Source: Minisyncoccota bacterium (GTDB lineage Bacteria > Patescibacteriota > Minisyncoccia > Phycocordibacterales > UBA918). Taken from it: a stretch of DNA of 64,000 nt. The position numbers and the translations under genes were made by a program. The notes under the pieces are model-generated. The model saw nothing but the letters and a program-made list of their open reading frames with translations, was not told where the DNA came from and made no database searches. Where the stretch lies: the NCBI GenBank assembly GCA_041389025.1, contig JAWKSP010000002.1:184079-248078 (forward strand). Direction: 5' to 3'. Position 1 is the first letter of the stretch. Each line of letters starts with the position of its first letter. Positions 13,010-64,000 of this stretch are shown piece after piece.

Positions 13010-13900
13010 ATGTCTCAGTATTCTGAAATCAAACTCCTCAATCCTTCGGATTTTGTACCAAACAATCTTGGTGCTTTACTAGAAATTCCTCAACCGCCCG
13101 ACCAACTTTGGTACCAAGGACAAATGCCGCCGGCAGACCTGAAGCTTTTGGCAGTGGTCGGCTCACGAAAATACACTACTTACGGCAAACAAGTGATTGA
13201 ACACTTGATATCTGGACTTGCTGACTATCCGGTCGGAATCGTGTCAGGCCTCGCACTTGGAATTGACGGACTAGCCCATGAAGCCGCTCTTAAGAATAAT
13301 TTGTATACCTTAGCCGTCCCCGGCAGCGGACTTGATGAGAAAGTTTTATATCCAGCTAGTCATCGGAGTTTGGCAAGGAGGATTGTGGATGGCGGCGGCG
13401 GTCTAATGTCGGAATTACCACCTACGACCGCCGCCGCCCCATGGACCTTCCCCCAAAGAAACCGCCTTATGGCCGGACTAGCACACGCCACTATTCTTAT
13501 AGAAGCCGGCGCCAAATCCGGCACCCTCATCACTGCTCGCCTGGCGGTCGACTACAACCGCGAGCTCTTAGCTGTCCCCGGTAGTATCTTTTCCAAAAAC
13601 TCCTACGGGACTCACCAATTTTTAAAGCTCGGCGCTACTTTAGTCACCGACGCTAGCGACATCCTCCTCACCTTAAATATAGAAGAGAAAAAAGCCGAGC
13701 AAAAAGCTAGACCAAAACTTTCCGACCTCGAGGAAAAAGTCATCACCCTCCTCCACGAACCCCTCGACCGCGACACCCTAATCAGACAACTAAATATCCC
13801 AGCCGCGGAAGCTGGGATATTGTTGATGAATATGGAAATGCAGGGGTATGTAAAGTATGAAGCTTTATTATATTACGACAATACAGAACGTAGTGTTTAA
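13010..13900 (+). CDS. dprA: DNA-processing protein DprA (SMF family)
   Basis: VVGSRKYTTYGKQV, GLALGIDGLAHEAAL, Rossmann-like DprA core. Confidence 0.85.
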   Translation: MSQYSEIKLLNPSDFVPNNLGALLEIPQPPDQLWYQGQMPPADLKLLAVVGSRKYTTYGKQVIEHLISGLADYPVGIVSGLALGIDGLAHEAALKNNLYTLAVPGSGLDEKVLYPASHRSLARRIVDGGGGLMSELPPTTAAAPWTFPQRNRLMAGLAHATILIEAGAKSGTLITARLAVDYNRELLAVPGSIFSKNSYGTHQFLKLGATLVTDASDILLTLNIEEKKAEQKARPKLSDLEEKVITLLHEPLDRDTLIRQLNIPAAEAGILLMNMEMQGYVKYEALLYYDNTERSV

Positions 13901-21328: not shown

Positions 21329-22879
21329 TTAAACGGTGAAATTTCTAATTGAATACAAATCACTTTCGTCCTCAGCTTTATTAATAGTAGTTTTTCCTTG
21401 AGACGTGTTTTGATTTATTGTTTCGTTATCAAGATTTTGACTAGCTTTGTTTGTTAAAACTTCACTGTTATTTTGACTTTGTTCAACAACTTGGTTTGTA
21501 TTTATCGTTTTTAAAGAATCGACTTCGGCTGTATTTTGAGCAACCTTATCTTCATTAACTTGATTTTGATTCTCTGGTTTTACCATAGGATTAAAATCTT
21601 GATTTTGTTTATAATCAGAAAAAACTGATTTATCTTCATCTTGATTCTGTACTGGAGTTGCAGCTTGAACTAAAGTAGTGTCTTGTTCTTGGGCTGGTGC
21701 TGGTAGATATTCCTCTTCTTCTGGTTCTTCAATTTTCTTGTAATCAGGACGAGACTCCAATCTATTGACTAATTCAGGATCTTCTAAGAGACTTTCAGGT
21801 TTAGGATCTTCTGGCTTGTTATCTTGATAATAGTTATAAGGATAATCGGTATTTTGTGTAACATTTTTTTCTTGATCATTATCTTGAGCACCAGATAAAC
21901 TTGGTCGACTAGAATTATTATCAACTGGAGAATTTGTTGTTTTTTCTTGTAGAGAATCATCTTTAATCACTTCTTGCACATTTAGTGGTGTATGTTTATT
22001 TAAAGAATCTGCCACAATGTCAGTAGTTGTAGCACCTAAAGAAGCAACCGCCTCGTCCCTTTTCATGCGTTGCAACATATCTTCCAAATCCTCTGGTGAA
22101 AAATAATCAATAGTCAAACGACCTCCGTAGTCAGTCTTTAATATCTGTACTCTAGTACCCAATGTCTCCATAAATCGCTTTTCCATTTCAATCACATCGT
22201 CATCAAACTCATGCGGATTTTTCTTACGTACCTTGTCGGTAGCAATCTTGCGTACAATTCTCTCCACTTCACGCACCGAGAGTTTCTTAAGTAAAATCTC
22301 ACGAAAAATTACATCTTGTTCTTGTGGTTTGTCATTTAGCATCAAGAGAGTTCTGGCATGCCCTTCAGTCATATCCCCTCTTTTTAAGGCATCCAACATT
22401 TGCTCCGGTAAAGCCAAAAGACGAATTGAGTTTGAAACATACTCACGACTACGGCCAACTTTTTTAGCTACCAAAGTATGCGACAAACCAAAAGTATCTG
22501 ATAGTTGCTTAAAAGCCAACGCTCGATCGACTGCGTTTAAATCTTCGCGTTGCAAGTTTTCGATAATAGCCAATTCCAATTTCTCTTGCTCACTATCCTC
22601 ACCTTCACGGATGATAACCGGTACTTGATGCAAACCAGCCAATTTACTCGCCCGCAAGCGACGTTCACCGGCAATAAGCTCGTACTCGGTATAAAAAGTT
22701 CCATCTTCACGTTGCACTTCCTTTCTAGTGACGGTAAGTGGCTGTAACACACCATACATTCTAATTGACTCGGATAATTCCTTTAATTTTTCCACATCAA
22801 ACTCACGCCGTGGCTGAAACGGATTTGGAACTACCTTCTCTACTTCTACCCAAAAAATTGAATCTCCCTGAAATGCCAT
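21329..22879 (-). CDS. parB: ParB/Spo0J-like partition protein with a long low-complexity C-terminal tail
   Basis: ParB box GERRLRASKLAG, HTH; about 250 aa of Q/N/E-rich disordered C-terminus. Confidence 0.75.
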   Translation of the reverse strand: MAFQGDSIFWVEVEKVVPNPFQPRREFDVEKLKELSESIRMYGVLQPLTVTRKEVQREDGTFYTEYELIAGERRLRASKLAGLHQVPVIIREGEDSEQEKLELAIIENLQREDLNAVDRALAFKQLSDTFGLSHTLVAKKVGRSREYVSNSIRLLALPEQMLDALKRGDMTEGHARTLLMLNDKPQEQDVIFREILLKKLSVREVERIVRKIATDKVRKKNPHEFDDDVIEMEKRFMETLGTRVQILKTDYGGRLTIDYFSPEDLEDMLQRMKRDEAVASLGATTTDIVADSLNKHTPLNVQEVIKDDSLQEKTTNSPVDNNSSRPSLSGAQDNDQEKNVTQNTDYPYNYYQDNKPEDPKPESLLEDPELVNRLESRPDYKKIEEPEEEEYLPAPAQEQDTTLVQAATPVQNQDEDKSVFSDYKQNQDFNPMVKPENQNQVNEDKVAQNTAEVDSLKTINTNQVVEQSQNNSEVLTNKASQNLDNETINQNTSQGKTTINKAEDESDLYSIRNFTV

Positions 22880-24692: not shown

Positions 24693-24766
24693 GGGCCTAT
24701 AGTTTAGTGGTAGAATTCTGGTCTCCAAAACCAGCGACCGTGGTTCGAGTCCACGTGGGCCCGCCA
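24693..24766 (+). tRNA. tRNA-Trp (anticodon CCA)
   Basis: Acceptor GGGCCTA/TGGGCCC, anticodon loop CTCCAAA, encoded CCA end. Confidence 0.75.
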
Positions 24767-24840: not shown

Positions 24841-25728
24841 CTAATACCCGTATATAGAAAAATGAGATGCAGAAATCCAATTACCCAATACTTTTATATC
24901 ATCACCAGAGGCACCTTGTGATATCAAACTATCTTTCTCCGCTTGGGTTTTAACCTCATAGACTGGCCTTAATCCATTTTTTTTAGCGGCATCTATAACC
25001 CTAACAACTTCTGCCCCAGTCATACCACCCGCCTTACTATAATCAATACAAGTTCCGTTATTGTGACATTCGCTTTTATGCGCACGGGTTGGTGGCATAC
25101 CTTCTGTAACTCTTGCTCCAGACACACCTGCATCTATATGAAACTGGTTTATTTTATCAACGATACTAGGTGATACACTACAACTACTTGCATTCTTACA
25201 CGGAGCAGCAAGAGGAACACAAGTCCCTCCAGTACAACCAGATGGCAACGGTCCTGTTGGTGGTGGAGTGTTAGGATCGGACATGGGATCCCCTAGCCAT
25301 TTAGTTGGCGCAGTCTGCACCTGACACTGTACATCTGTCCACGGTCCATAACCTTGAATTTCCCCACTACCACCCTTTAATAAACCTCGCATAATAGTAT
25401 CTACCAAAAGCCAAGCCGCCATCACAATAACCAGTCCGATAATAGCATTGGTAAACTTACTCTTAGCATCCTCTAAAGCTGAAGTGTTACCACCAGAAGT
25501 TATCAATTTAAAGCCAGCAACCGTCATCATAACCGCAAAAATCATAAAAATAATTCCAAACAACCATTTTATGACAATATTGGCTGTATCTACTAAATTA
25601 CACGCACTACAATCGACTCCATCACAAGTGAGGAAGCCTTGAGCATTTACAGACTCAGCCGGCACTATAAGCACTAAAAGAAATACTAATAATGGTGGAG
25701 AGATAAGTGTTAAAGTTTTTTTAATCAT
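24841..25728 (-). CDS. pilin-like two-TM module (TrbC/VirB2 or T4SS-pilin style) fused to a Cys-rich C-terminal domain with an M15-like HxxGxCxD segment
   Basis: Signal peptide, Cys cluster CDGVDCSAC, TM1, loop GGNTSALEDAKSKF, TM2 NAIIGLVIVMAAWLLV; C-terminal HNNGTCID. Confidence 0.4.
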   Translation of the reverse strand: MIKKTLTLISPPLLVFLLVLIVPAESVNAQGFLTCDGVDCSACNLVDTANIVIKWLFGIIFMIFAVMMTVAGFKLITSGGNTSALEDAKSKFTNAIIGLVIVMAAWLLVDTIMRGLLKGGSGEIQGYGPWTDVQCQVQTAPTKWLGDPMSDPNTPPPTGPLPSGCTGGTCVPLAAPCKNASSCSVSPSIVDKINQFHIDAGVSGARVTEGMPPTRAHKSECHNNGTCIDYSKAGGMTGAEVVRVIDAAKKNGLRPVYEVKTQAEKDSLISQGASGDDIKVLGNWISASHFSIYGY

Positions 25729-25749: not shown

Positions 25750-26766
25750 CTACAAAGCATCCGCCACACTAGTAATGTTTTTTACATAATTTCTAGTCTC
25801 TACATAACCAGTATTTGGCACACAACTAGAATTTTCAGTCTCATAACATCCTGGACTATCCCAAGCACATTCCCACCGCATCAGTCCCGGACAATCATTG
25901 CTAGGTAAAATTGCAGCTGGTCCACCATTATATTCAGCCAAAGCTCGACTGGTAGCGTTATCATAAGCTCGATGTTTTTCATACAATTGATCATAATACT
26001 TAGCACCTAAAGCTAAGCTATAATTATTATCATCTCGTAATTTTGTCGCTACTTCCTCATCGCTTAAACCTTTTAAACTAGGGTCCAGTCCTCGAGCAGT
26101 ACTAACCAACATCTGACTACAACCATAGGCTGTACCATATGGTGTATCTGGCCCTACTTTATTGGTACAGTTACCAGATTCTTGCATAATTAGTGACTTA
26201 AATATTTTTTGTTGGTACGGATCGTTTATACCATTTGCGACAGCTGTGTTTTGTATATCCGTTTGAATACTACCGGAAGAATTTATTGCATTTACTGCTG
26301 AATTAATTTCATTGGTATTAAATATATGATTATTACTACCAGTAGCTGTGGTCCTAGCAAATTGCTGAGCTGTTGGCTGAGCCACACACTGAATATCATC
26401 CCAGAAGTCATAAGTAGGACTGTTTACCATTACTTTCAAACCAAAATCCACCACAAACCAAACGGCTAAAAAAATAATGTAGCCAACAATTGCATTAATA
26501 AGATATTTTTTGATTTGCGTTCTGGCTCCAGCCTGACCAACCGAAGAAGCTAGCCATAAACCAAGCACCATTATCATGATAATTATAAGAACCCCCAAGA
26601 TAATACCTAGCCAATCAAAAATGTTTTGTATTAATTTAACAACGTGACAAGTTTGACAAGGATCTGCTCCATCTCCTCCACACGGCACCAATCCGGCAGC
26701 GCTCACCAAAATAGGAGAAACCATCAAGGTAAATAAAGTATAAACTTTCCACATATCCAAAATCAT
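25750..26766 (-). CDS. pilin-like two-TM module fused to a lytic transglycosylase (SLT) domain (VirB1-like activity)
   Basis: N-terminus parallels 24841..25728 (VPCGGDGADPCQTC, two TMs, INAIVGYIIFLAVWFV); C-terminal MQESGN...GCSQML...AEYNGG SLT motifs. Confidence 0.5.
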   Translation of the reverse strand: MILDMWKVYTLFTLMVSPILVSAAGLVPCGGDGADPCQTCHVVKLIQNIFDWLGIILGVLIIIMIMVLGLWLASSVGQAGARTQIKKYLINAIVGYIIFLAVWFVVDFGLKVMVNSPTYDFWDDIQCVAQPTAQQFARTTATGSNNHIFNTNEINSAVNAINSSGSIQTDIQNTAVANGINDPYQQKIFKSLIMQESGNCTNKVGPDTPYGTAYGCSQMLVSTARGLDPSLKGLSDEEVATKLRDDNNYSLALGAKYYDQLYEKHRAYDNATSRALAEYNGGPAAILPSNDCPGLMRWECAWDSPGCYETENSSCVPNTGYVETRNYVKNITSVADAL

Positions 26767-26890: not shown

Positions 26891-26974
26891 GCGTCGGTGG
26901 CAGAGTGGTCAATTGCATCAGACTGTAAATCTGACGGGCTTCGCCCTACGGGGGTTCAAATCCCTCCCGGCGCA
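26891..26974 (+). tRNA. tRNA-Tyr (anticodon GTA)
   Basis: Acceptor GCGTCGG/CCGGCGC, anticodon loop CTGTAAA, long variable arm, T-arm GGGGGTTCAAATCCCTC; terminator hairpin at 26977..27012. Confidence 0.75.
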
Positions 26975-27112
26975 CAAAATATAAAACACCCTAAAAGGGT
27001 GTTTTATATTTTGTAGCAGTAATAAATATGTGCTTACCAAAATTTATTTATTGTTATTTGCTATACTAAGAGCAAATAAGTGATTTCATTTGATCTATGA
27101 TGTTATAAACAT

Positions 27113-32119: not shown

Positions 32120-34818
32120 TTAAGCGGTTACCGGTTCTTTTGCTTTTACAACACGTTTTGTGACAGGTTTTTTTCTTCCCCCTTTACTCTTTACGTCAAA
32201 ATCAATTTCACCCTTACGCATACAGACTTTTACCACTCCTTTTTGTAACATACCCTCACCCACCATCATATTAGCCACCGGTGTTAGTATCTTACTTTGG
32301 ATCAAGCGTTTTAATGGTCTCGCACCAAACTTTGGATCATAACCTTCTTTAGCCAAGTACTCCAGCACATCATCGGTTAAAGTCATAATTATTTCTTTAT
32401 TTTCTAGACGACGTTGTACTTCATCAATCTGAATAGAAACAATACTGCGAATAGTTTCTGGTGACAAAATATCAAAGACAATTATCTCATCAAGTCGGTT
32501 TAAGAACTCTGGTCGGAAGTAGTTCTTGAGACTATCCATTACTTTATCCTTGGCCTGCACATATTGAGTAGCATCATCTTTTTCAGCCGCAAAACCAAAA
32601 CTAGACATTCTATCTATATGCTCAGCACCAATATTAGAGGTCATAATAATAACTGTATTGCGGAAATTAACCTTTCTACCTTTAGCATCAGTCAAATGAC
32701 CAGAGTCAAGGACCTGCAATAGAATATTAAATACTTCAGGATGAGCTTTTCTATTTCATCCAACAAGATAACTGAGTAAGGACGATGTCGTACTCTCTCG
32801 GTAATTGATCCTCCTTCTTCGTGTCCCACATAACCAGGTGGCGAACCAATAATCTTAGACACAGCATGTTTTTCCATGAACTCTGACATATCAATCCGAA
32901 GTAAAGCATCAGAATCATTAAACATAAATTCTGCTAAAGCCTTAGATAGTTCAGTTTTACCAACTCCAGTTGGACCAAGAAACAGAAATGAACCGATCGG
33001 ACGATTTGGATCAGCAATTCCCGCTCGTGAACGCTTGATAGCGTCAGCCACCAGTTTAATAGCATGATCTTGACCAACTACTTTATTTTTTAGAACATCC
33101 TCCATTCTAGCTAGTTTACGAGCTTCCGCTTCAAGCATGCGAGACACCGGTATACCAGTCCAACGCGAGACTACAGAAGCAATATCTTCTTCAGTCACCT
33201 CTTCTTTTAGTAAACGACGACTGCGTTGCAGTTTTTTAAGACGTTTCATTTTATCATCAAGTGCTTTTTGTACTTTAGGAATTGAATCATAACGAATTTC
33301 CGCTGCCTGAGTTAAATCAGCCATTGCTTCAGCATTTTCTGCTTCTACTCTAAGTTCTTCTAATTCCTTCTTTAATTTACTAATTTCTCCAAGAGTATTT
33401 TTTTCATTACTCCATTTAGTTTCTAAAGCTGAAGTGGTTTCTTTTAGTTCACCGATTTCTCGTTCGATTTCTTTTATTCTGTCTTTTATTTTCTTCTTAT
33501 TTTCAGACACTTCTAACTCCTTTCGCAAAGCTTCACGTTCGATTTCTAAACGTCGCACCTGTCTGTCAGACACTACCAACTCTTCCGGTTTATTTTCTAG
33601 TGAAATACGTAAAGCAGAAGCCGCTTCATCAATCAGATCCACAGCTTTATCTGGTAAAAAACGATCAGTAATGTAACGAGAAGAAAGATTTACTGCTGAT
33701 ACAATCGCATCATCAGTAATTCGTACTCCATGAAAAAGCTCGTATTTTTCAGACAGACCACGAAGAATAGCGATAGTGTCTTCCGGTGACGGCTCATTTA
33801 CAAACACTGGTTGAAAACGTCGAGTCAAGGCCGGATCTCGTTCAATGTGTTTTTGATACTCTTTTAAAGTAGTAGCTCCGATTACTCTTATTTCACCACG
33901 AGCCAAAGCTGGCTTTAGCATATTAGAAGCATCCATCGATCCTTCGGCTTGTCCTGCACCAACTATAGTATGCAATTCATCGATAAATAAAATTATTCCT
34001 CCATCAGAAGCTTCTACTTCTTTCATCACTGCTTTTAAACGCTCCTCGAACTCACCACGAAACTTAGTACCAGCCACTAAAAGACCTAAATCAAGAGATA
34101 GAATCTCTTTTTCTCGAACTGACTCGGGTACATAACCAAGCACTATTTGCTGGGCCAAACCCTCAGCTATTGCAGTCTTTCCCACTCCGGCCTCTCCTAT
34201 CAACACTGGGTTATTCTTAGTACGACGAGACAGTATCTGAATCACCCGTTGTATTTCCACATCACGACCAATTACCGGATCTAGTTTATTTTCTTGTGCC
34301 AATTTAGTAAGATTTCTAGTGTATTTAGTTAGAGCACGATATTTTTTAGGAGCCTGAACGTCAGTAACATTATGTTCACGCAACTCCTTAACTGTACGTA
34401 TGACTTTCTCTCGATCAATTCCCGAACGCTGTAATAACTCAACCGCCGGCCCCGGATACTCAAGAACAGCTACAAACAAATGCTCTACTCCAACATAAGA
34501 ATCACCCATTTGCTCAGCTAACTTACCAGAAAACTCTAGCGCTTTAGCTAGATCAGGCGTCAAATAAAGTTGGTAAGTTGGTGAAATCGTAGTTTGCATC
34601 TCACTCACCTCTAATGCTTCGAGCATAATATCAGTAAAAGCAATCACGTCGACATCCATTCGGTCAAGAATTGAGATCACCATACTTTCATCCTGCATGG
34701 CCAATGCGGTCAAAAGATGAATTGGATTAACATGATTTTGTCCTCGTTCGATAGCTAGTTCATGCGCTTTTCTGATAGCTTCTTTAGCTTTTGATGTAAA
34801 ATTTTGAAAATTAGGCAT
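32120..34818 (-). pseudogene. clpB: ClpB chaperone (AAA+ disaggregase) interrupted by a 1-nt frameshift near 32745
   Basis: N-domain, NBD1, coiled-coil M-domain and NBD2 are all recognisable. Reading LLDEIEK then jumps frame; adding one g to gaaaag-ctcatcc restores [16 protein letters not shown]. Confidence 0.7.
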
Positions 34819-35789: not shown

Positions 35790-36359
35790 CTACTTAGTAA
35801 TAATTTTTACATTTTCAGATAAATTTTTGGTAATAAAATCTAAATCTTGCTTTGAATAGTTGGTACCGATTAAGTTTAATACCTTTAAGTTACTTAAATT
35901 ACTAAGTTCATACGGTAAACCAGTAATAGGATTGTTAGACAAATCTAAGACCTCAAGCTTTGATAACTGGCCAATTTCGGCTGGTACTCCGGTAAAATTA
36001 TTATCACTTAGATCAAGAGTTTGTAGATTTTGTAAATGTCTAATCTCAGCCGGCAATGACCCGCTTAGTTTATTGTGAGATAAATCCAAAACAGTGACTT
36101 CTTTTCTAGAAAAAATACCGCTTGGTTCTTTAGTTAGATTTTGGTAGCTCAAATCAATAACTTGATCATCATTTGCTTCTGATGATTTATCCAAGAGACT
36201 ATCTGGTACTGCTTGATTAACCATATTGTTTACTGTTTTTTCTGTATTTAATCTTTCTTCCAAGACTTTTTTACCAGCTGTAGTCTCGGTTTCATTAGAA
36301 ATATACATAAATCCAAAAACAATTATGACAATCGCGAGCAATAGACTAATTAAACCCAT
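35790..36359 (-). CDS. leucine-rich repeat protein with an N-terminal TM anchor
   Basis: At least five LxxLxLxxNxL repeats (LDLSHNKLSGSLP, LDLSDNNFTGVP, LDLSNNPITGLP...). Confidence 0.6.
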   Translation of the reverse strand: MGLISLLLAIVIIVFGFMYISNETETTAGKKVLEERLNTEKTVNNMVNQAVPDSLLDKSSEANDDQVIDLSYQNLTKEPSGIFSRKEVTVLDLSHNKLSGSLPAEIRHLQNLQTLDLSDNNFTGVPAEIGQLSKLEVLDLSNNPITGLPYELSNLSNLKVLNLIGTNYSKQDLDFITKNLSENVKIITK

Positions 36360-50354: not shown

Positions 50355-51304
50355 TTATCTAAGGACATTTGTCACTTTTTCATATAGTACTTCATTAGGA
50401 CTCTTTCCATCAAGGGAACAATGTTCCAGGTTGTTATAGTATTCATTCCAAAGGCGAATTTTCTTTTTCAGATTGGTAACAGAAGTAAATCTGTTACGTT
50501 GATAAAACTTCTCCTCATCTTCTCTATGAGAGCGTTCAACGGTACCGTTCTGAGCCGGTTTCCCTGGATCAATCAGGTAATGAGTAATCTTGTGTTTAAT
50601 ACACCACTCATCTAAAGCATGAATAGTCTTTATGGTTAAGTCTGAACGTTTATTGGTGCCAAGGTAATAATTGGTAAAGGTACTATGATTATCGGTTTTG
50701 ATAGCTTGTATGGTATTGGGAAACTTCTGTTTAACTATCTCCATCATTCTAATAGCATGGTGAGTAGTTTGTTCATCAAATATTTCTAAATGTCTCCATC
50801 TACTAGCGGTATCTATGACTGTATATTGATAGTATTTAAGGCCTTGTATAGCCCCTGGAACATACTTCACGTCCATCTCTAGGAGTGTTCACCTGGTTGT
50901 CTCACTGCTTTTATATATTTATACTTTATCTTCTTAACTCGGTACTTACGTACTAATCCTGCATTTTTAAGTATTTTAGATACGGTACTATGTGGTACTA
51001 ACAACCCTTGTTTCTTCAATCTCCAATGCAGTTTCTTGGAACAAAGACCGGTTTGTTTACGGAGGGTGATAACTTCTTCTTTGATACGTATTGGAGTTTC
51101 GTTAGGTTGTGTCTTTGGTTCCGTACTTTTAGGTATCAATCCATCCAGGCCACGTTCTTTATATGCTTTCTTCCACCTTTTTAAACTACGTTCACTATGT
51201 GGACATACTTTAGCTACGTCTACCAACCTCATTTCTTTATTAATAATTGGTTTGATCCACCTCCACCTTTCTTCTTGTATAGTTTTTGCCATAGATATAC
51301 ACAT
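50355..51304 (-). pseudogene. IS481-family transposase split by a -1 frameshift between the HTH and the rve/DDE domains
   Basis: ORF A ...RQPGEHS* then ORF B MDVKYVPG...; in the -1 frame the join reads QPGE-LLEMDVKYVPG (IS481-like PGELxxIDVKKL); KTDNHSTF and PAQNGTVERSHR DDE-region motifs; no obvious slippery heptamer. Confidence 0.55.
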
Positions 51305-52307: not shown

Positions 52308-52377
52308 TTCAAACGGTATCAAATTTTTTAAAAAAATTTTTTTAAAATTTGATACCATTTTTTTATATTTATATAAA

Positions 52378-52758
52378 TTAAGGTCCGGTATTTGGATTAG
52401 AATTATTTGTATTATTAGTGTTATTATTTACTGGATTAAACACGGTATTACACTGTGCCGCCGTCGGATCTTTGGTACAGTCTAAAGTTTGTCCAAGACC
52501 AAAGGTATTTACAGCGATACTGAGTATCGCATAAGCTGAAGCCATAATAACCAAACCGATAATACCGTAAGTCATGTGTTTTTTTCCTTTATCACGCGCC
52601 TGCTCACTGGCACCATTAAAAATAAAGATCGCTGCCCCATAAATAAAAACCAGAAAAGCAATACCACTCAAAAGAGCTATTAAAGGAAATAGGATTACAT
52701 CATTTACCTTTTCGACAAATTTCCAAGCTTCGTTAGCAGCATCTTGCTGGGGTGACAT
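52378..52758 (-). CDS. two-TM pilin-like small protein (paralog family, T4SS-pilin/TrbC-like)
   Basis: TM1, loop NGASEQARDKGKK, TM2 HMTYGIIGLVIMASAYAIL; N/T-rich C-terminus. Confidence 0.4.
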   Translation of the reverse strand: MSPQQDAANEAWKFVEKVNDVILFPLIALLSGIAFLVFIYGAAIFIFNGASEQARDKGKKHMTYGIIGLVIMASAYAILSIAVNTFGLGQTLDCTKDPTAAQCNTVFNPVNNNTNNTNNSNPNTGP

Positions 52759-52851
52759 GCGTATAATTATATCACCTTGTTACGGCCAGTAAATAAATAA
52801 TACACAAAACAAAAAAGCCCAAACGGGCTTTTTATAGTAAAGTGCTAAAGA

Positions 52852-53307
52852 TTAAATAGGATTAACCTTCGGCTTCAAAGTCTGATCAAAAACTTCATCA
52901 GCACCTGTACTTGAAGCAAGTAGATTAATAACACCCCAGAATATAATGATTAAAACAAAACCTAGAATTGCGTAAATCATCAAACTCTTTCCTTTTTCTT
53001 TTGACTCTTCGTTGGCTCCACCAGCTATAAAGTATTGGAACATTCCCCAAACGAATACGAGAAAACCAATGCCAACAATAAATGGTATTAATACAGTGTT
53101 CGCAAAAACAAGTATGGTTTGAAGCAAATCGCCAAACCTACCTCCTCCTCCGGCTCCTACACCTCCTGGATCAGCTAATTGTGCAGAAGCATTTGCTATC
53201 GGCAAAAAAAACAAGACTAGACTAGTGAGAAGAAAATTAAAACGTTGCATAACTTTTTGTAAATTTATTAATAAATAATTAATCGTGTACCTTTTAAAAT
53301 TATACAT
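52852..53307 (-). CDS. two-TM pilin-like small protein (paralog)
   Basis: Signal peptide, TM1, loop AGGANEESKEKGKS, TM2 LMIYAILGFVLIIIFWGVINLL. Confidence 0.4.
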   Translation of the reverse strand: MYNFKRYTINYLLINLQKVMQRFNFLLTSLVLFFLPIANASAQLADPGGVGAGGGGRFGDLLQTILVFANTVLIPFIVGIGFLVFVWGMFQYFIAGGANEESKEKGKSLMIYAILGFVLIIIFWGVINLLASSTGADEVFDQTLKPKVNPI

Positions 53308-53358
53308 AAAATATTATTTTTTGGTATATCAGATTTGAAATATTGTGAATAATTTTAC

Positions 53359-53613
53359 TTAACCAAAAATTGATTTTCTAAGCATATTTATAATACCCCA
53401 TACAGAAATAATCAATACGACGACCAACACAGCCACTAAAGCCAGTCTTTTTCCTTCCTCTCGTTTTTTTTCGTCTCCAGCATTTATCACCCAGGCGTCA
53501 AACACCTTCCAAACCAAAAAAAGGAACACAAAAGATAAGAGCGTTGGTATTAAAATATTTATCAAGCCGATAAAGAGATTAACTAGTTCTTTAAATGTGG
53601 TAGGAGTATTCAT
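53359..53613 (-). CDS. two-TM pilin-like small protein (paralog)
   Basis: TM1, loop NAGDEKKREEGKR, TM2 LALVAVLVVVLIISVWGIIN. Confidence 0.4.
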   Translation of the reverse strand: MNTPTTFKELVNLFIGLINILIPTLLSFVFLFLVWKVFDAWVINAGDEKKREEGKRLALVAVLVVVLIISVWGIINMLRKSIFG

Positions 53614-53618
53614 AAAAA

Positions 53619-54023
53619 TTACGGAGAGGGTGGAGGGGTAAAAGCACTAACTAGGTTCTTAATAATCTCACCAATCGCATACGCTCCCAAAATAAGTACT
53701 CCACCAATAATAGCGTAAGTGAGGGCTTTTTTAGCAGTAGTTAGCTTAGTCTCGTCACCTTGAGCGGTCACATAGAGAAAGCCGGCATAGATAATGAAAA
53801 AAATAACTATCGGGGTGGCTATCACCACTACAATACCTAATATACCTTCCAATAAGTCTTCTATACTATTTACTGATAGCGGGTTATTTAGAGTTACATT
53901 AGTACTTGGAGGAGGAGCTGAATACGTCATTCTCGGTAGAAACAAAAATAACCATAATAAAAAACCATGGTTACAGAATTTTCGAACATCTTCTCCTTTT
54001 TCTTTAATAATATTCATATCCAA
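53619..54023 (-). CDS. two-TM pilin-like small protein (paralog)
   Basis: TM1, loop TAQGDETKLTTAKKA, TM2 LTYAIIGGVLILGAYAIGEII; Pro-rich C-terminus. Confidence 0.4.
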   Translation of the reverse strand: MDMNIIKEKGEDVRKFCNHGFLLWLFLFLPRMTYSAPPPSTNVTLNNPLSVNSIEDLLEGILGIVVVIATPIVIFFIIYAGFLYVTAQGDETKLTTAKKALTYAIIGGVLILGAYAIGEIIKNLVSAFTPPPSP

Positions 54024-54028
54024 AATAA

Positions 54029-55345
54029 TTAGTACACCGCTTGTAACCGACCTACCACATCATTAGCCGTTCTTGTGGTATCTTGTCTGTTGGCACTAAT
54101 ATCTTCTAATGCCCTACTAAGTATATCATCCGTCTGTTCCAAATCTGGATTCAACCATGCTCTAGTGTTGTAAGCTGATAAATAGATGATTCTTCCATAA
54201 ACGTCATTACTTCCAAGGGACAAAGAACTTCTATGGACCGGAGCCATGTTATATCCATCAGCTAAAACCTTAGCTCTATTCTGGCTCCCGATCTCACTCA
54301 TCACTTGATATGCTCCTTGTTTATTATTAGCACTTTTCGGTATAAAAAAGCCATAAAAATTTCCATATACGCGTTTGTTGGTGGAATTTTCACCCTGTGG
54401 AACTTCAGCTATATCGAAACTCAAATTGGGATTCTTTTCTTCAAGTCCACGCGCTTCACTGCCGTATCCGAAATAAAAAGCTAAATCTTCTCTCAAGAAT
54501 ACGTCTTGATCTAATCCTAAAGTTCGATTCCAGCTATATAGAGAGTTGTTTACATTACTAAAACTGGTATAGAAATCTAACGTTTTAGTAAGTGGAATCT
54601 TAACGCTATTTGATTCATTTAACTTAACCATATACTCATTGTTTTTACTTTCCGAAACCATTGGGCTACCGGCTTGAAGAAGTAGGGTAGATAGTATTGG
54701 AAAAGCATTTTTTACATTTACATATTCTCCCATCGCCAAAGTCGATAGTTGGATTCTTCGATTGAAGTCCCTAATAGTTATCAACGGCGCCATTGAACTT
54801 ACTAACTCTTCCCAATTTTTTGGTGGCGTTAAAAAACCATTATCAGACAAAATATCCCTATTCCAGTACATAACCAACGGATCAACCATAACTGGAAAAG
54901 CATACACTCCGTCTTGCAGAGCAAAGATGGAAGCACCATCTATATACAAGTTTCTAAAATCACGCTCTGGAAAAGAGTCATATGATATTGGTTGTAATCG
55001 ACTACGGTGCTTAACCAACCTTTCGTGAGACATAAAAAGTAAGTCAGGCGGAGTTTGGTCAGCCAATGCGTCGACAAGTACTTTGTCAAAATCTTCCGGC
55101 GGTATATAACGGTACGATACTGTCCTAAATGACTCATTATCTTCACGTAGGTCAATCATCATACTTGAAAATACATCGTCAGACAAAGTTCCCCATATAG
55201 ATACACCGCCCTTTAAATCAAGACATGTCCCATCTTCTTCGCAAGACGGACTCTCATATGTATTCAACAAAACCAATGCGGCAATCATTAAAACTCCAAA
55301 CGTCACTACCAACCCTAATTCAAACGGTCTTAGTTTTAACATCAT
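54029..55345 (-). CDS. extracellular solute-binding protein-like (SBP family 1-like) lipoprotein or anchored protein
   Basis: N-terminal TM; VYAFPVMVDPLVMYWNRDIL resembles the SBP_bac_1 hinge region; no adjacent permease or ATPase. Confidence 0.45.
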   Translation of the reverse strand: MMLKLRPFELGLVVTFGVLMIAALVLLNTYESPSCEEDGTCLDLKGGVSIWGTLSDDVFSSMMIDLREDNESFRTVSYRYIPPEDFDKVLVDALADQTPPDLLFMSHERLVKHRSRLQPISYDSFPERDFRNLYIDGASIFALQDGVYAFPVMVDPLVMYWNRDILSDNGFLTPPKNWEELVSSMAPLITIRDFNRRIQLSTLAMGEYVNVKNAFPILSTLLLQAGSPMVSESKNNEYMVKLNESNSVKIPLTKTLDFYTSFSNVNNSLYSWNRTLGLDQDVFLREDLAFYFGYGSEARGLEEKNPNLSFDIAEVPQGENSTNKRVYGNFYGFFIPKSANNKQGAYQVMSEIGSQNRAKVLADGYNMAPVHRSSLSLGSNDVYGRIIYLSAYNTRAWLNPDLEQTDDILSRALEDISANRQDTTRTANDVVGRLQAVY

Positions 55346-55891
55346 ATTTTTCTTACACTAAATCCATAATGATGGTCACCGGCTGGGAATTCGCGCTCCA
55401 TCACCATACCACCAGCTTCAAATAATGCGATAGCGGTATCTTTTTGTATTACGTCTGCCGGCTGTGGACCTAAACCTCCAAAAGATTCAGACCAATCAAT
55501 GACATGTATTACTCCACCATGTCTAATAACGCGACTTATTTCTCTTATAGCCGCTTCTTTATTTTCAAACTGAAAAAGTATTTAATAAAATACCCGTATC
55601 CAAACCTCATCATCAAGCGGAATTCCTGATTCTTCAAGATCACACCACAGAACTTACATTAGGCAAGCTATTGATACGAATAAATTCACTCAGTTTCTCC
55701 ACTAAAACTTTTTGTATTTCACAAGCATACACATGGCCAGTACTACCGGTCATTTCTGATAATACCTTTAGAAAAAAACCACTACCAGCTCCAAAATCTG
55801 CCACTTGGTCACCTTCTTTAATAAAAAAGTGGCTGGCAACGACATCAGGCACAACAAACCGTCCAGGTAAGATGTTATTCATACCCTTCAT
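55346..55891 (-). pseudogene. class I SAM methyltransferase broken into at least two frames
   Basis: The N-terminal ORF (55640..55891) carries motif I VADFGAGSGFF and stops. A different frame downstream encodes FQFENKEAAIREISRVIRHGGVIHVIDW... (the post-II LKPGG-like region). Confidence 0.45.
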
Positions 55892-55989
55892 TTTAATATA
55901 ATTTAATCTTTATTTAAACCTGTTGGGTGTGTAATCAAAAAAAAGAAAAGGGCGGTCGCTTCGCGACCGCCCTTTTCTTTCTTTTTTGA

Positions 55990-61887: not shown

Positions 61888-62670
61888 TTGATTCTTAGTT
61901 ATGTTATCCTTATCACTACCATGTCAGAACCAATTCTCAAAATTGAAAATTTAGTCAAAACCTACGGCCAAGGCGACAAAGCCAAGCTCGCAGTCGATAA
62001 TATTTCACTAAGTATCCCGAAGGGTAGCTTTTTTGGTCTTTTGGGACCAAACGGAGCCGGAAAAAGTACCACCATTCACTGTATTACCGGTATTTCGCAG
62101 CCAACCTCCGGACAAATATTTGTTGATGGTACCGATGTAGTAGAAGAGTATAAACTGGCTAGAACAAAAGTTGGACTCTCTCCTCAAGAATTTAATGTCG
62201 ATATCTTTTCAACCGCTGAAGAATTAATGCATTACATGGGTGGTTACTACGGAATAGAAAAAATTGAGCGACAGAAAAGAATTAATGAATTAATAAAACA
62301 ATTCGACCTAGAAGAACATCGCAATGTACGATTCCAAAAACTGTCTGGCGGACTTAAACGTCGCACCATGCTAGGGCGAGCTTTGGTGCATTTACCACAA
62401 CTTCTAATTCTCGACGAACCAACAGCTGGTGTTGACATCAAGCAACGTCACGACCTTTGGGCTTATCTAAAAGAAATTAACCGACAAGGCACCACTATTA
62501 TTCTCACTTCACATTACCTAGAGGAAATAGAATATCTTTGTAACGATATTGCTATCATAAATCACGGAAAGATAGTCGCTCACGACACAAAAGAAAACTT
62601 TATTAAAGATGGACAGAAGCTTGAAGACGCTTATTTAAAAATTACCAAAGAAAAAGTAACTGAAAATTAA
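61888..62670 (+). CDS. ABC transporter ATP-binding protein
   Basis: Walker A GPNGAGKST, signature LSGGLKRR, Walker B LLILDEPT. Confidence 0.85.
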   Translation: MILSYVILITTMSEPILKIENLVKTYGQGDKAKLAVDNISLSIPKGSFFGLLGPNGAGKSTTIHCITGISQPTSGQIFVDGTDVVEEYKLARTKVGLSPQEFNVDIFSTAEELMHYMGGYYGIEKIERQKRINELIKQFDLEEHRNVRFQKLSGGLKRRTMLGRALVHLPQLLILDEPTAGVDIKQRHDLWAYLKEINRQGTTIILTSHYLEEIEYLCNDIAIINHGKIVAHDTKENFIKDGQKLEDAYLKITKEKVTEN

Positions 62671-62672
62671 TT

Positions 62673-63440
62673 ATGAAAACAAATTGGATTGGTCTTTTCA
62701 CGATGTTTGAACGAGAGATAAAGCGTACCTTAAGAGTTGCTATCCAAACCTTGGCCGCACCGGTAATATCCGCTGCTCTCTATATATTTATATTTGGTCT
62801 AGTTATTGGTTCACAAATAACCGAAATCGCTGGGGTTTCATACATTGCTTTTGTCTTTCCTGGCATCTTGATGTTATCCGTCATTAATTCGGCTTTTGCT
62901 AGCTCTTCTTCTGCCCTTTATTTCATGCGTTTTACGCGTGGTATTGAAGAAATACTAATCACTCCTTTTTCATACCTTGAAATGTTAATCGGCTTTGTCG
63001 GTAGTGCTATTACACGCGCTATCTTAGTCTCACTTCTTATTCTAGTTGTAGGTGTTGTTTTTGGCGCTGTTTCTCTACTCCATCCAGTTTTATTTATATT
63101 ATATGTTAGTGCGATTGCCGCTATTTTTGCTATGCTTGGGATAATTGTGGCTTTATGGGCTGAAAATTTTGAACAGCTCCAAGTTCTCAATACTTTTGTC
63201 ATTACCCCTCTCACCTATCTAGGCGGAATCTTCTACTCCATTACTTTCTTGCCGGAAACCGCCGCTACTTTAACCGCCTTAAATCCTTTTTTTTACTTTG
63301 CTGACGCTGTAAGATACAGCATGATTGGCGTTAGCGAAGCTAACGCCACTATAGGTGTGGTTATAATCATCACATTAGTTTTTGGACTTGGTATTTTAGT
63401 GACACATCTTTTTAAAAAAGGATGGAAGATAAGGTCGTAA
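62673..63440 (+). CDS. ABC-2 type transporter permease
   Basis: Six TM helices; translationally coupled to the ATPase (ATG 3 nt after its stop). Confidence 0.7.
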   Translation: MKTNWIGLFTMFEREIKRTLRVAIQTLAAPVISAALYIFIFGLVIGSQITEIAGVSYIAFVFPGILMLSVINSAFASSSSALYFMRFTRGIEEILITPFSYLEMLIGFVGSAITRAILVSLLILVVGVVFGAVSLLHPVLFILYVSAIAAIFAMLGIIVALWAENFEQLQVLNTFVITPLTYLGGIFYSITFLPETAATLTALNPFFYFADAVRYSMIGVSEANATIGVVIIITLVFGLGILVTHLFKKGWKIRS

Positions 63441-63659
63441 TTTTTTAAAACTACTTGTTCCAGCAATTCGTCCTAGGAAGGGACGAATTGGGAACTAAAT
63501 TCATAATAGTCGTTACACTCCTTTATTCATTTATCCTTGGAGGGTCGAAACTAACATTGTGCCTGCCTAAAGAAAACATAGTCGCGCTGCGCGCTCCTTG
63601 TTTTCCTTAAAATTTGTTTTTACTTTTTGATTAAAGTATAATAGTAGAAATTTTGCTTA

Positions 63660-64000
63660 TGAATCTGTTTTCAAAAAAAGATAATGAGTTAGAAAAAACA
63701 TCTGACAAAGAATCTGAAACAGAAATTCACCACGTCGAAAAAGAAGAACATCCTATATTAGAAATAATTCGCTTCTCAATTATTGCCTTGATTATAGTAG
63801 TACCAATCCGGATGTTTATCGCCCAACCTTTTATCGTTTCCGGTGCCTCTATGGAAAATACCTTTCATACCGGTGAATACCTAATTATCGACCAAGTTAG
63901 TTATTACCTACATGAACCAAATCGCGGTGATGTTATTGTGTTTCGTTATCCTAAAGACCCATCCAAATTCTTTATTAAGAGAGTTATCGGTCTACCGGGA
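63660..64000 (+). CDS. lepB: signal peptidase I (truncated at the window end)
   Basis: TM anchor then SGASMENTF (S26 catalytic Ser box) and VIVFRYP / IKRVIGLPG box. Confidence 0.7.

Follow-up and report, generated by a model that had tools for sequence, protein, structure and literature searches.

Patescibacteria are obligate epibionts with tiny genomes, and the locus described here raises the question of why one of them keeps four small pilin-like genes in a row. The locus lies in a 64,000-nucleotide stretch (hereafter, the window) of contig JAWKSP010000002.1 (250,242 bp; assembly GCA_041389025.1, positions 184,079 to 248,078 of the forward strand), which comes from a metagenome-assembled genome of Candidatus Paceibacterota with locus tags of the form R3B60_.... 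We refer to the four array genes, in 5' to 3' order on the minus strand, as P4, P3, P2 and P1, and to two fusion proteins encoded near 25 kb as F1 and F2. The initial annotation had described four minus-strand open reading frames (ORFs) of 126, 151, 84 and 134 aa as pilin-like paralogues with two transmembrane (TM) helices, had added the two fusion proteins as further members, and had attributed the set to amplification that provides either a repertoire of subunits or antigenic variation of a filament. We found the ORFs as described, with two starts refined (ATG at 54017 for P4 and, probably, ATG at 53250 for P2), and the loop sequences and AIIG/AILG motifs had been read correctly. As to the question itself, a fixed repertoire of distinct subunits is a better reading of the array than amplification or variation. 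We favor, with reasonable though not high confidence, a model in which four distinct VirB2-like subunits, each an N-out/C-out hairpin, co-assemble into a pilus-like or conduit-like heteromer built by a type IV secretion system (T4SS) that is encoded elsewhere.

To which family do these proteins belong? All six modules consist of a hairpin of two TM helices joined by a basic loop with an invariant Lys. Five of them score above the gathering cut-off (26.6 bits) of the Pfam profile PF18895, T4SS_pilin: F1 at 44.9, F2 at 39.4, P4 at 36.7, P2 at 33.5 and P1 at 33.1 bits; the score of P3 is taken up below. In a leave-one-out test, a hidden Markov model (HMM) built from five modules was searched against all 523 ORFs of the window, and every omitted module was recovered (E = 1.5e-5 to 1e-14; P3 at 5.7e-10). 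The best non-members in these searches had E >= 6.6e-4, and the other multi-TM proteins of the window gave no score. Two weak HMM matches, at 35790-36359 (a leucine-rich repeat protein) and 63635-64000 (signal peptidase I), were set aside as not belonging to the family. From these results, we conclude that the window holds exactly six members of one family, as had been proposed.

Two further profiles place this family more closely. With PF04956 (TrbC/VirB2; gathering cut-off 27.9 bits), P4 scores 29.1 bits and P1 14.4 bits, the remaining modules giving no match; PF04956 is also present on many P4 orthologues in precomputed annotation. Five modules match NF045849, a pilin-like conjugal transfer protein of mycoplasma integrative and conjugative elements (ICEs), at 36.8, 33.1, 26.3, 24.6 and 21.9 bits, all below the equivalog cut-off of 40 bits, so that they are related to that family and not members of it. 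Judged by these profiles, the modules are assigned to the VirB2/TrbC-related T4SS_pilin family (PF18895), that is, to conjugative or type IV secretion pilins and not to type IV pili. Type IV pilus pilins were considered and rejected: a class III signal peptide (G|F/M-x-x-x-E) was not seen on reading the sequences, and two TM helices are present in all six modules. The NCBI annotation labels P4 and F1 (295 aa, 24841-25728) as 'pilin', P3 and P1 as 'hypothetical', and the gene upstream of the array as 'extracellular solute-binding protein'. With PF18895 or PF04956 genes (at least two) standing in tandem or one gene apart at low mutual identity, the array also corresponds to the definition of a patescibacterial VirB2 array. 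The family is large, with 49,914 cluster representatives at E <= 1e-3 among 1.84 billion; a tblastn search of P4 against 72,556 plasmids gave no match.

Could the similarity reflect a chance resemblance of generic two-TM proteins, or kinship with an unrelated two-TM family such as holins? Pairwise identity is low, BLASTP among the four array proteins giving 22-40% (E = 3e-11 to 1e-2), and fold searches with the two-helix hairpin match thousands of unrelated helical proteins, so that they do not discriminate. Against such a resemblance, curated Pfam thresholds are passed, every omitted module returns at E <= 1.5e-5 while the other membrane proteins of the window give no score, a PHROG search of the four array proteins found no holin or phage family at E <= 0.01, and the orthologues keep the loop and the helix positions. 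Because of the profile statistics, we regard chance similarity as excluded at the level of sequence comparison, and this explanation as a whole is extremely improbable. The initial annotation had itself raised both objections; neither was borne out, as the alignment is significant and no holin emerged.

We then asked whether the four genes are recent copies of one another or an old set. The six-module alignment contains no conserved stretch of 7-10 columns, and the protein encoded directly upstream of the array, which resembles solute-binding proteins (SBPs) and is hereafter called the SBP, was used as the query for related loci instead. Taking one genome per species, we obtained 80 loci at 31-58% identity, all from Paceibacteria/Parcubacteria. 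By best match, P4 corresponds to the first, P3 to the second and P2 to the third gene of the related arrays, and in most related loci the counterpart of P1 is the last gene, however many genes the array contains. These positional orthologues are about 50-67% identical (47-64% for those of P4), roughly as conserved as the SBP. A search at the DNA level for repeats or gene conversion among the four genes gave nothing but a 19-mer that encodes the GKK loop. Because positional orthologues exceed the window's paralogues in identity, and because no DNA-level repeat was found, the four genes appear to form an ancient, vertically inherited, fixed subunit set rather than a recent amplification or a variation cassette. 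The amplification suggested earlier is thus not supported, the positional orthologues being spread over dozens of species in conserved order.

Antigenic or host-range variation deserves separate consideration. It would make the four proteins interchangeable major subunits, amplified to vary the surface of a filament, as has been proposed for the VirB2 proteins of Bartonella and Anaplasma, and it was raised as a speculation in the published survey of patescibacterial arrays (PMC12102498). Tails and signal-peptide or linker regions are indeed variable and indel-rich. We compared the genes with those of the closest relative, a 4.6-kb Logan contig (L084) whose SBP is 83% identical to that of the window. 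Synonymous divergence (dS) was saturated in this comparison (1.4-2.1), which leaves dN/dS rough, and only the contrast in nonsynonymous divergence (dN) was used. P3 is 96% identical (dN 0.027), P4 85% (dN 0.114), P1 85% (dN 0.132) and the SBP 83% (dN 0.117); the dN of three of the four array genes is therefore about at or below that of the neighboring SBP, and P4, P3 and P1 are shown to be under purifying selection. P2 stands apart: the window protein (52852-53250) is only 47% identical to its counterpart (L084 2154-2558; dN 0.44), against 83-96% for its neighbors, and is closer (59-65%) to the P2 proteins of more distant genomes than to that of L084. This anomaly suggests that one array position underwent a lineage-specific (allelic) replacement or a burst of change, and it is the sole hint that favors variation. 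Otherwise, each paralogue has its positional orthologue across many species in fixed gene order, the paralogues differ in architecture (with or without a signal peptide, 84-134 aa), and no invertible elements, silent cassettes or DNA repeats were found at the array. Moreover, modules fused in single polypeptides, described below, imply simultaneous use. Together, these results make variation improbable, and the earlier proposal of antigenic variation is not supported.

The orthologue alignments also show which parts of each protein are kept. The hairpin cores are conserved, including the loop and the helix positions, and variation and indels are frequent in the signal peptides, in the linkers and in the C-terminal tails; the divergence of the tails noted in the initial annotation thus extends across orthologues. 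Signal peptides of P4, P2, F1 and F2 were recognized by reading the sequences, as signal-peptide-like N-termini with AxA sites. An AlphaFold2 (AF2) model of P4, computed with 55 orthologues as input, contains a signal-peptide helix (residues 4-31), a linker and a long helical hairpin (52-84 and 89-125), with a mean predicted local distance difference test (pLDDT) score of 86. NCBI starts this protein at ATG 54017, which gives 132 aa (MEZ4104489.1). Because the first 19 residues of the maximal, 151-aa P2 ORF are gapped in 70-80% of orthologues, the true start of P2 is probably ATG 53250, which would likewise give 132 aa. Orthologues of P1 range from 80 to 176 aa, with a conserved core and a tail that is variable and often absent; its N/T-rich tail is lineage-specific.

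Is the hairpin used only as a single subunit? The family profile finds its top matches in proteins of up to 1,775 aa in which a single chain contains 2-16 T4SS_pilin hairpin modules in tandem; we call them poly-pilins. Examples are P0246 (552 aa, 6 modules), P0289 (1,775 aa, 16 modules), P0250 and P0271. The gene for P0246 is surrounded by single-module pilin genes that form an array, a 3-module ORF belongs to the array of one related locus, and the positions recorded for poly-pilin ORFs are L083 1777-3435 and L060 4068-5207. In addition, a pilin array of a further related locus (L077 9747-16259) contains a gene for a 2,170-aa secreted protein with a signal peptide and a long Pro/Thr-rich region that ends in a T4SS_pilin module. 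The topology is consistent in all fusions, with the loop inside and the enzymes and the 2170-aa surface protein extracytoplasmic. The fusion of modules in single polypeptides argues for different modules standing next to one another in one assembly. We found no description of poly-pilin proteins in the literature searched.

The two fusion proteins of the window carry a different kind of cargo. F2 has a lytic transglycosylase (SLT) domain behind its hairpin, with a PF01464 score of 22.4 bits (gathering cut-off 21.3 bits) and a PHROG endolysin-domain match (E = 2e-4). The C-terminal domain of F1 has no match in Pfam or by sequence in the PDB. In its AF2 model, pLDDT exceeds 90 for residues 165-295, and the top five Foldseek matches of this domain are Hedgehog N-domains, which have the LAS zinc-peptidase fold (probability 0.96-1.0, E about 1e-2). 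The motif H222-x6-D229 and residue H289 are invariant in 70 homologues, and in relatives a Peptidase_M15_3 domain stands behind the same N-terminus as that of F1. The domain is therefore probably a peptidoglycan peptidase of the LAS (Hedgehog/D-Ala-D-Ala-peptidase-like) fold, to judge from this model. Homologues of F1 of about 300 aa are common in Paceibacteria. Because the essential genes beside virB4 in Southlakia epibionticum include those for a peptidase and a lysozyme homologue, a VirB1-type role as wall-cutting partners is plausible, by analogy, for F1 and F2. Their genes are bracketed by those for tRNA-Trp (24693-24766) and tRNA-Tyr (26891-26975), two of the eight tRNA genes in the window.

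With which genes does the array travel? The SBP is its conserved upstream partner. In the window, its stop codon lies 5 nt before the TTG of P4, and the gaps within the array are 5, 51 and 93 nt. Across the related loci, the SBP is followed directly by 2-8 same-strand pilin-family ORFs in 77 of 80 genomes, the contigs of the other three ending too early. SBP orthologues are strikingly uniform in length (431-441 aa). No SBP-pilin fusion, sought as Rosetta-stone evidence, was present among the top 120 SBP homologues. No ABC importer permease was found in the 64-kb window, so the SBP is an orphan there; the sole ABC genes of the window (61888-63440) form an ABC-2 type exporter pair. The next gene upstream encodes an S-adenosylmethionine (SAM)-dependent methyltransferase. 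In relatives it is intact (about 180 aa, with Methyltransf_11/25/31 matches for that of L081), its stop overlaps the SBP start, and it lies directly upstream of the SBP in 75 of 81 loci. The copy in the window is broken and represents either a pseudogene or an assembly indel. A wider block, composed of an MBL-fold gene, a small gene, gyrA, the ~180-aa methyltransferase gene, the SBP gene, the pilin genes and two convergent genes, recurs in 62-75 of the loci, and independent gene calls with Pfam labels reproduce this order exactly for a Kaiserbacteria genome. Because this block and its gene order recur across related genomes, the array belongs to the core genome and not to a mobile element.

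How might the array be expressed? A candidate intrinsic terminator lies between P2 and P1, and a hairpin with an A-run and a T-run occurs at the same place, with different stem sequences, in L001-L014 and L018. Downstream of it, a promoter-like site precedes P1; its -10 box ends 7 nt before the ATG, which suggests that the P1 mRNA is leaderless or nearly so. In close relatives, too, a -10-like box precedes the start codon of the last pilin gene, at a distance of 6-10 nt, and the arrangement of terminator and promoter before that gene is kept in about a dozen related species. Because this conserved pair precedes the last gene, the sequence suggests two transcription units, one comprising methyltransferase, SBP, P4, P3 and P2, and the other a separately promoted P1. 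A strong terminator hairpin behind gyrA would bound the first unit upstream, and an AT-rich inverted repeat beyond the P1 stop is a possible bidirectional terminator.

Features of the pilin locus and of the fusion genes, in window coordinates.
Feature	Position	Strand	Description
P4, first pilin gene	53619..54023	-	134 aa from TTG; signal peptide, ~20-aa linker, helical hairpin, PPPSP tail
P3, second pilin gene	53359..53613	-	minimal 84-aa hairpin without signal peptide or tail; most conserved member
P2, third pilin gene	52852..53307	-	maximal ORF, 151 aa; signal peptide ending ANASA|Q, Gly-rich linker, hairpin, short tail
P1, last pilin gene	52378..52758	-	126 aa; acidic N-tail, hairpin, C-terminal Cys-Cys loop, N/T-rich tail; no signal peptide
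SBP-like protein	54029..55345	-	438 aa, family 1, N-terminal membrane anchor; SBP_bac_1 41.5 bits, SBP_bac_8 40.6 bits
SAM-dependent methyltransferase gene	55345..55891	-	frameshifted; tblastn with relatives' proteins splits over two frames, internal stops
F1	24841..25728	-	295 aa; signal peptide, CxxxxCxxC motif, pilin hairpin, Pro-rich linker, Cys-rich C-terminal domain
F2	25750..26766	-	signal peptide, Cys motif, pilin hairpin, SLT domain (PF01464 above cut-off)
Candidate intrinsic terminator between P2 and P1	52812..52833	-	GC-rich hairpin with T-run, found by scan; RNA fold -16.6 kcal/mol, z = -4.9, 0/200 shuffles as good
Promoter-like site for P1	52766..52793	-	TTTACT, 16 nt, TG-n-TATAAT; 10/12 match with TG, the region's best on the minus strand
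Strong terminator hairpin after gyrA (upstream operon boundary)	55940..55982	-	20-bp stem, 10 GC pairs
AT-rich inverted repeat between the stops of P1 and the convergent 293-aa gene	52311..52360		24-nt arms, 88% complementary, 2-nt loop

Some further features of the window were recorded alongside the locus. An insertion sequence-like element (50355-51304, with an HTH_32 ORF and an rve integrase ORF) lies downstream of the array, between the conserved convergent 293-aa membrane-protein gene and the Band_7 gene, and is absent from related loci. A second apparent frameshift splits a ClpB/ClpC-type chaperone (32120-34818) into two overlapping ORFs of 708 and 199 aa, each of which carries part of the AAA_2 domain (profile positions 1-87 in one and 97-166 in the other). 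The window also contains the genes for ParB (21329-22879) and DprA (13010-13900). Cumulative GC skew falls monotonically over all 64 kb, which indicates that no replication origin or terminus lies inside the window.

The neighborhood and the modularity of the hairpin raise the main alternative, namely that the proteins form a T4SS-independent envelope complex. The hairpins would then stay in the membrane as a heteromeric platform with the SBP, serving as a receptor, in uptake or in anchoring; the module would double as a generic anchor for surface enzymes, and homology to VirB2 would reflect ancestry only. The array is linked to the SBP-like gene and the methyltransferase gene, the former in 77 of 80 genomes, and not to secretion genes. 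The orphan state of the SBP, the tandem multi-module proteins with up to 16 hairpins, the anchoring of an SLT domain, a LAS-type peptidase and the 2170-aa surface protein, and the lack of any extracellular part in P3 all fit such a platform. Set against these points are the profile matches to TrbC/VirB2 and to the conjugal-transfer pilin-like family, and the presence of the same family inside a T4SS cluster in Saccharibacteria, where it is essential. The lack of SBP-pilin fusions among the top 120 SBP homologues likewise speaks against the platform, and no known transporter is built of such hairpins. We consider this alternative unlikely but credible.

In the model that we favor, assembly by a T4SS, each array protein would span the cytoplasmic membrane so that both of its termini face outward and the short basic loop, with its invariant Lys, faces inward. 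Insertion would depend on cleavable signal peptides in P4 and P2, and P3 and P1, whose N-tails are short and acidic, would enter the membrane as hairpins. The resulting membrane pool of four different subunits would be built into one pilus-like or conduit-like heteromeric structure by a VirB4-powered, Gram-positive-type T4SS, encoded elsewhere in the genome as in most Patescibacteria, and the variable tails, Pro-rich or N/T-rich, would be displayed on its outer surface. P1 would be expressed at a level different from that of P4 to P2. F1 and F2 would probably cut the cell wall as partners of the system, in the manner of VirB1, with their own pilin module either anchoring them or bringing them into the structure, and the SBP-like partner might act as an adhesin, a receptor or an assembly factor. 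In this model, both pilus formation and dependence on a VirB4 machine are inferred.

Several findings weigh against this model. P3 scores 19.2 bits with PF18895, below the cut-off, and P3 and P1 lack a signal peptide, unlike classical VirB2. PDB sequence and profile searches detected no solved pilin, giving weak transporter matches and spurious repeat matches to designed 'Pizza' propellers, and the fold searches discussed above discriminate no better. No T4SS component (VirB4, VirD4, VirB6 or PrgI) was found in the window, where every ORF of at least 500 aa is a housekeeping gene (TopA, RelA/SpoT, ParB, ClpB/C, IF-2, a Band_7 protein and GyrA) and the smaller ORFs matched no T4SS or ABC-importer family. 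Nor were T4SS genes seen within 10 kb of the array in the 80 related loci, and the associated secretion ATPase that the initial annotation had proposed to look for is absent from both. The multi-module proteins (12-32 TM helices) and the anchoring of enzymes are explained by a resident membrane complex no less well than by an extruded filament. Finally, to our knowledge, a pilus has never been seen experimentally for any member of the T4SS_pilin family.

A further reading goes beyond both models. In Paceibacteria, the hairpin set may have been uncoupled from the secretion cluster, tied firmly to the orphan SBP in a class-wide core operon beside gyrA, and may form a heteromeric pilus or conduit with an SBP-fold receptor or tip, which would capture or import host-derived molecules rather than serve export or DNA transfer; hydrolases and giant adhesins would be plugged in via the hairpin module. 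We rate this reading as quite unlikely.

How does the array compare with known systems? Tandem arrays of this family are established in Patescibacteria. In Southlakia epibionticum ML1, six sequence-divergent PF18895 pilins (SEML1_0014-0019) lie in a T4SS cluster, and all are essential for epibiotic growth (Wang et al., Cell 2023, PMC10633639). VirB4 occurs in 2,417 of 3,035 Patescibacteria assemblies; the survey that gives this count also describes 441 VirB2 arrays, each of 2-11 genes, in which identity averages 25% and reaches at most 54%, and offers variation for host range as a speculation (Quinonero-Coronel et al., Microb Genom 2025, PMC12102498). A 2025 review regards the T4SSs of Patescibacteria as the only monoderm T4SSs with potential conjugative pili (PMC12857230). 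The window array resembles these in its PF18895 genes with or without PF04956, its tandem order, its low identity, its monoderm host from the candidate phyla radiation (CPR), and its members with and without tails. It differs in that the ML1 array lies inside the T4SS cluster, whereas the array described here is at least 10 kb from any T4SS gene, in a block of gyrA, methyltransferase, SBP-like and pilin genes. In addition, the published arrays are most abundant in Microgenomatia and Saccharimonadia, and this one comes from Paceibacteria.

More distant systems share some of these features. Classical VirB2/TrbC proteins (Agrobacterium VirB2, RP4 TrbC) are likewise small, with a signal peptide, two hydrophobic helices and a short basic loop, and P4 passes PF04956. 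However, they come from diderms, usually with one pilin gene per system beside virB3/virB4, whereas here four divergent genes, two without a signal peptide, stand with no adjacent machinery. The 80-residue hairpin profile of the mycoplasma protein Mbov_0395/ICE_MMCAP2_0565 (NF045849) spans the whole module of five of the six members, from a monoderm host as well, and this likeness agrees with the MPF-FATA ancestry reported for the T4SS of Patescibacteria; in mycoplasmas the gene occurs once and is carried by an ICE, whereas the window genes are a chromosomal core-genome array. Bartonella and Anaplasma also have several tandem virB2-like genes in one genome, but their paralogues are thought to vary for immune evasion, whereas those of the window are ancient, order-conserved and mostly under purifying selection. 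As for VirB1-type hydrolases, the SLT domain of F2 and the LAS-type peptidase fold of F1 recall the essential pair of S. epibionticum; in the window, however, each enzyme follows a pilin module in one polypeptide, and its gene stands apart from T4SS genes.

The family (Pfam), the 'pilin' label (NCBI annotation) and the existence of tandem arrays (two recent papers) are thus already known. In the literature searched, we did not find the class-wide SBP-linked operon, the positional orthology, the internal terminator and promoter, or the hydrolase fusions. Few systems of Patescibacteria have been shown to be indispensable when they grow on a host, and the T4SS, with its unusual series of pilins, is one of them. 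To this, the locus adds that in Paceibacteria, the largest class, a four-member set forms a fixed, order-conserved core-genome operon coupled to an SBP-like protein, and that its paralogues behave as distinct subunits and not as variants. It further adds that the same hairpin recurs as the carrier of cell-wall hydrolases and of giant surface proteins and, in tandem, as the unit of poly-pilin chains. These features offer handles for structural and genetic work on which subunit is the major one and on what the SBP binds.

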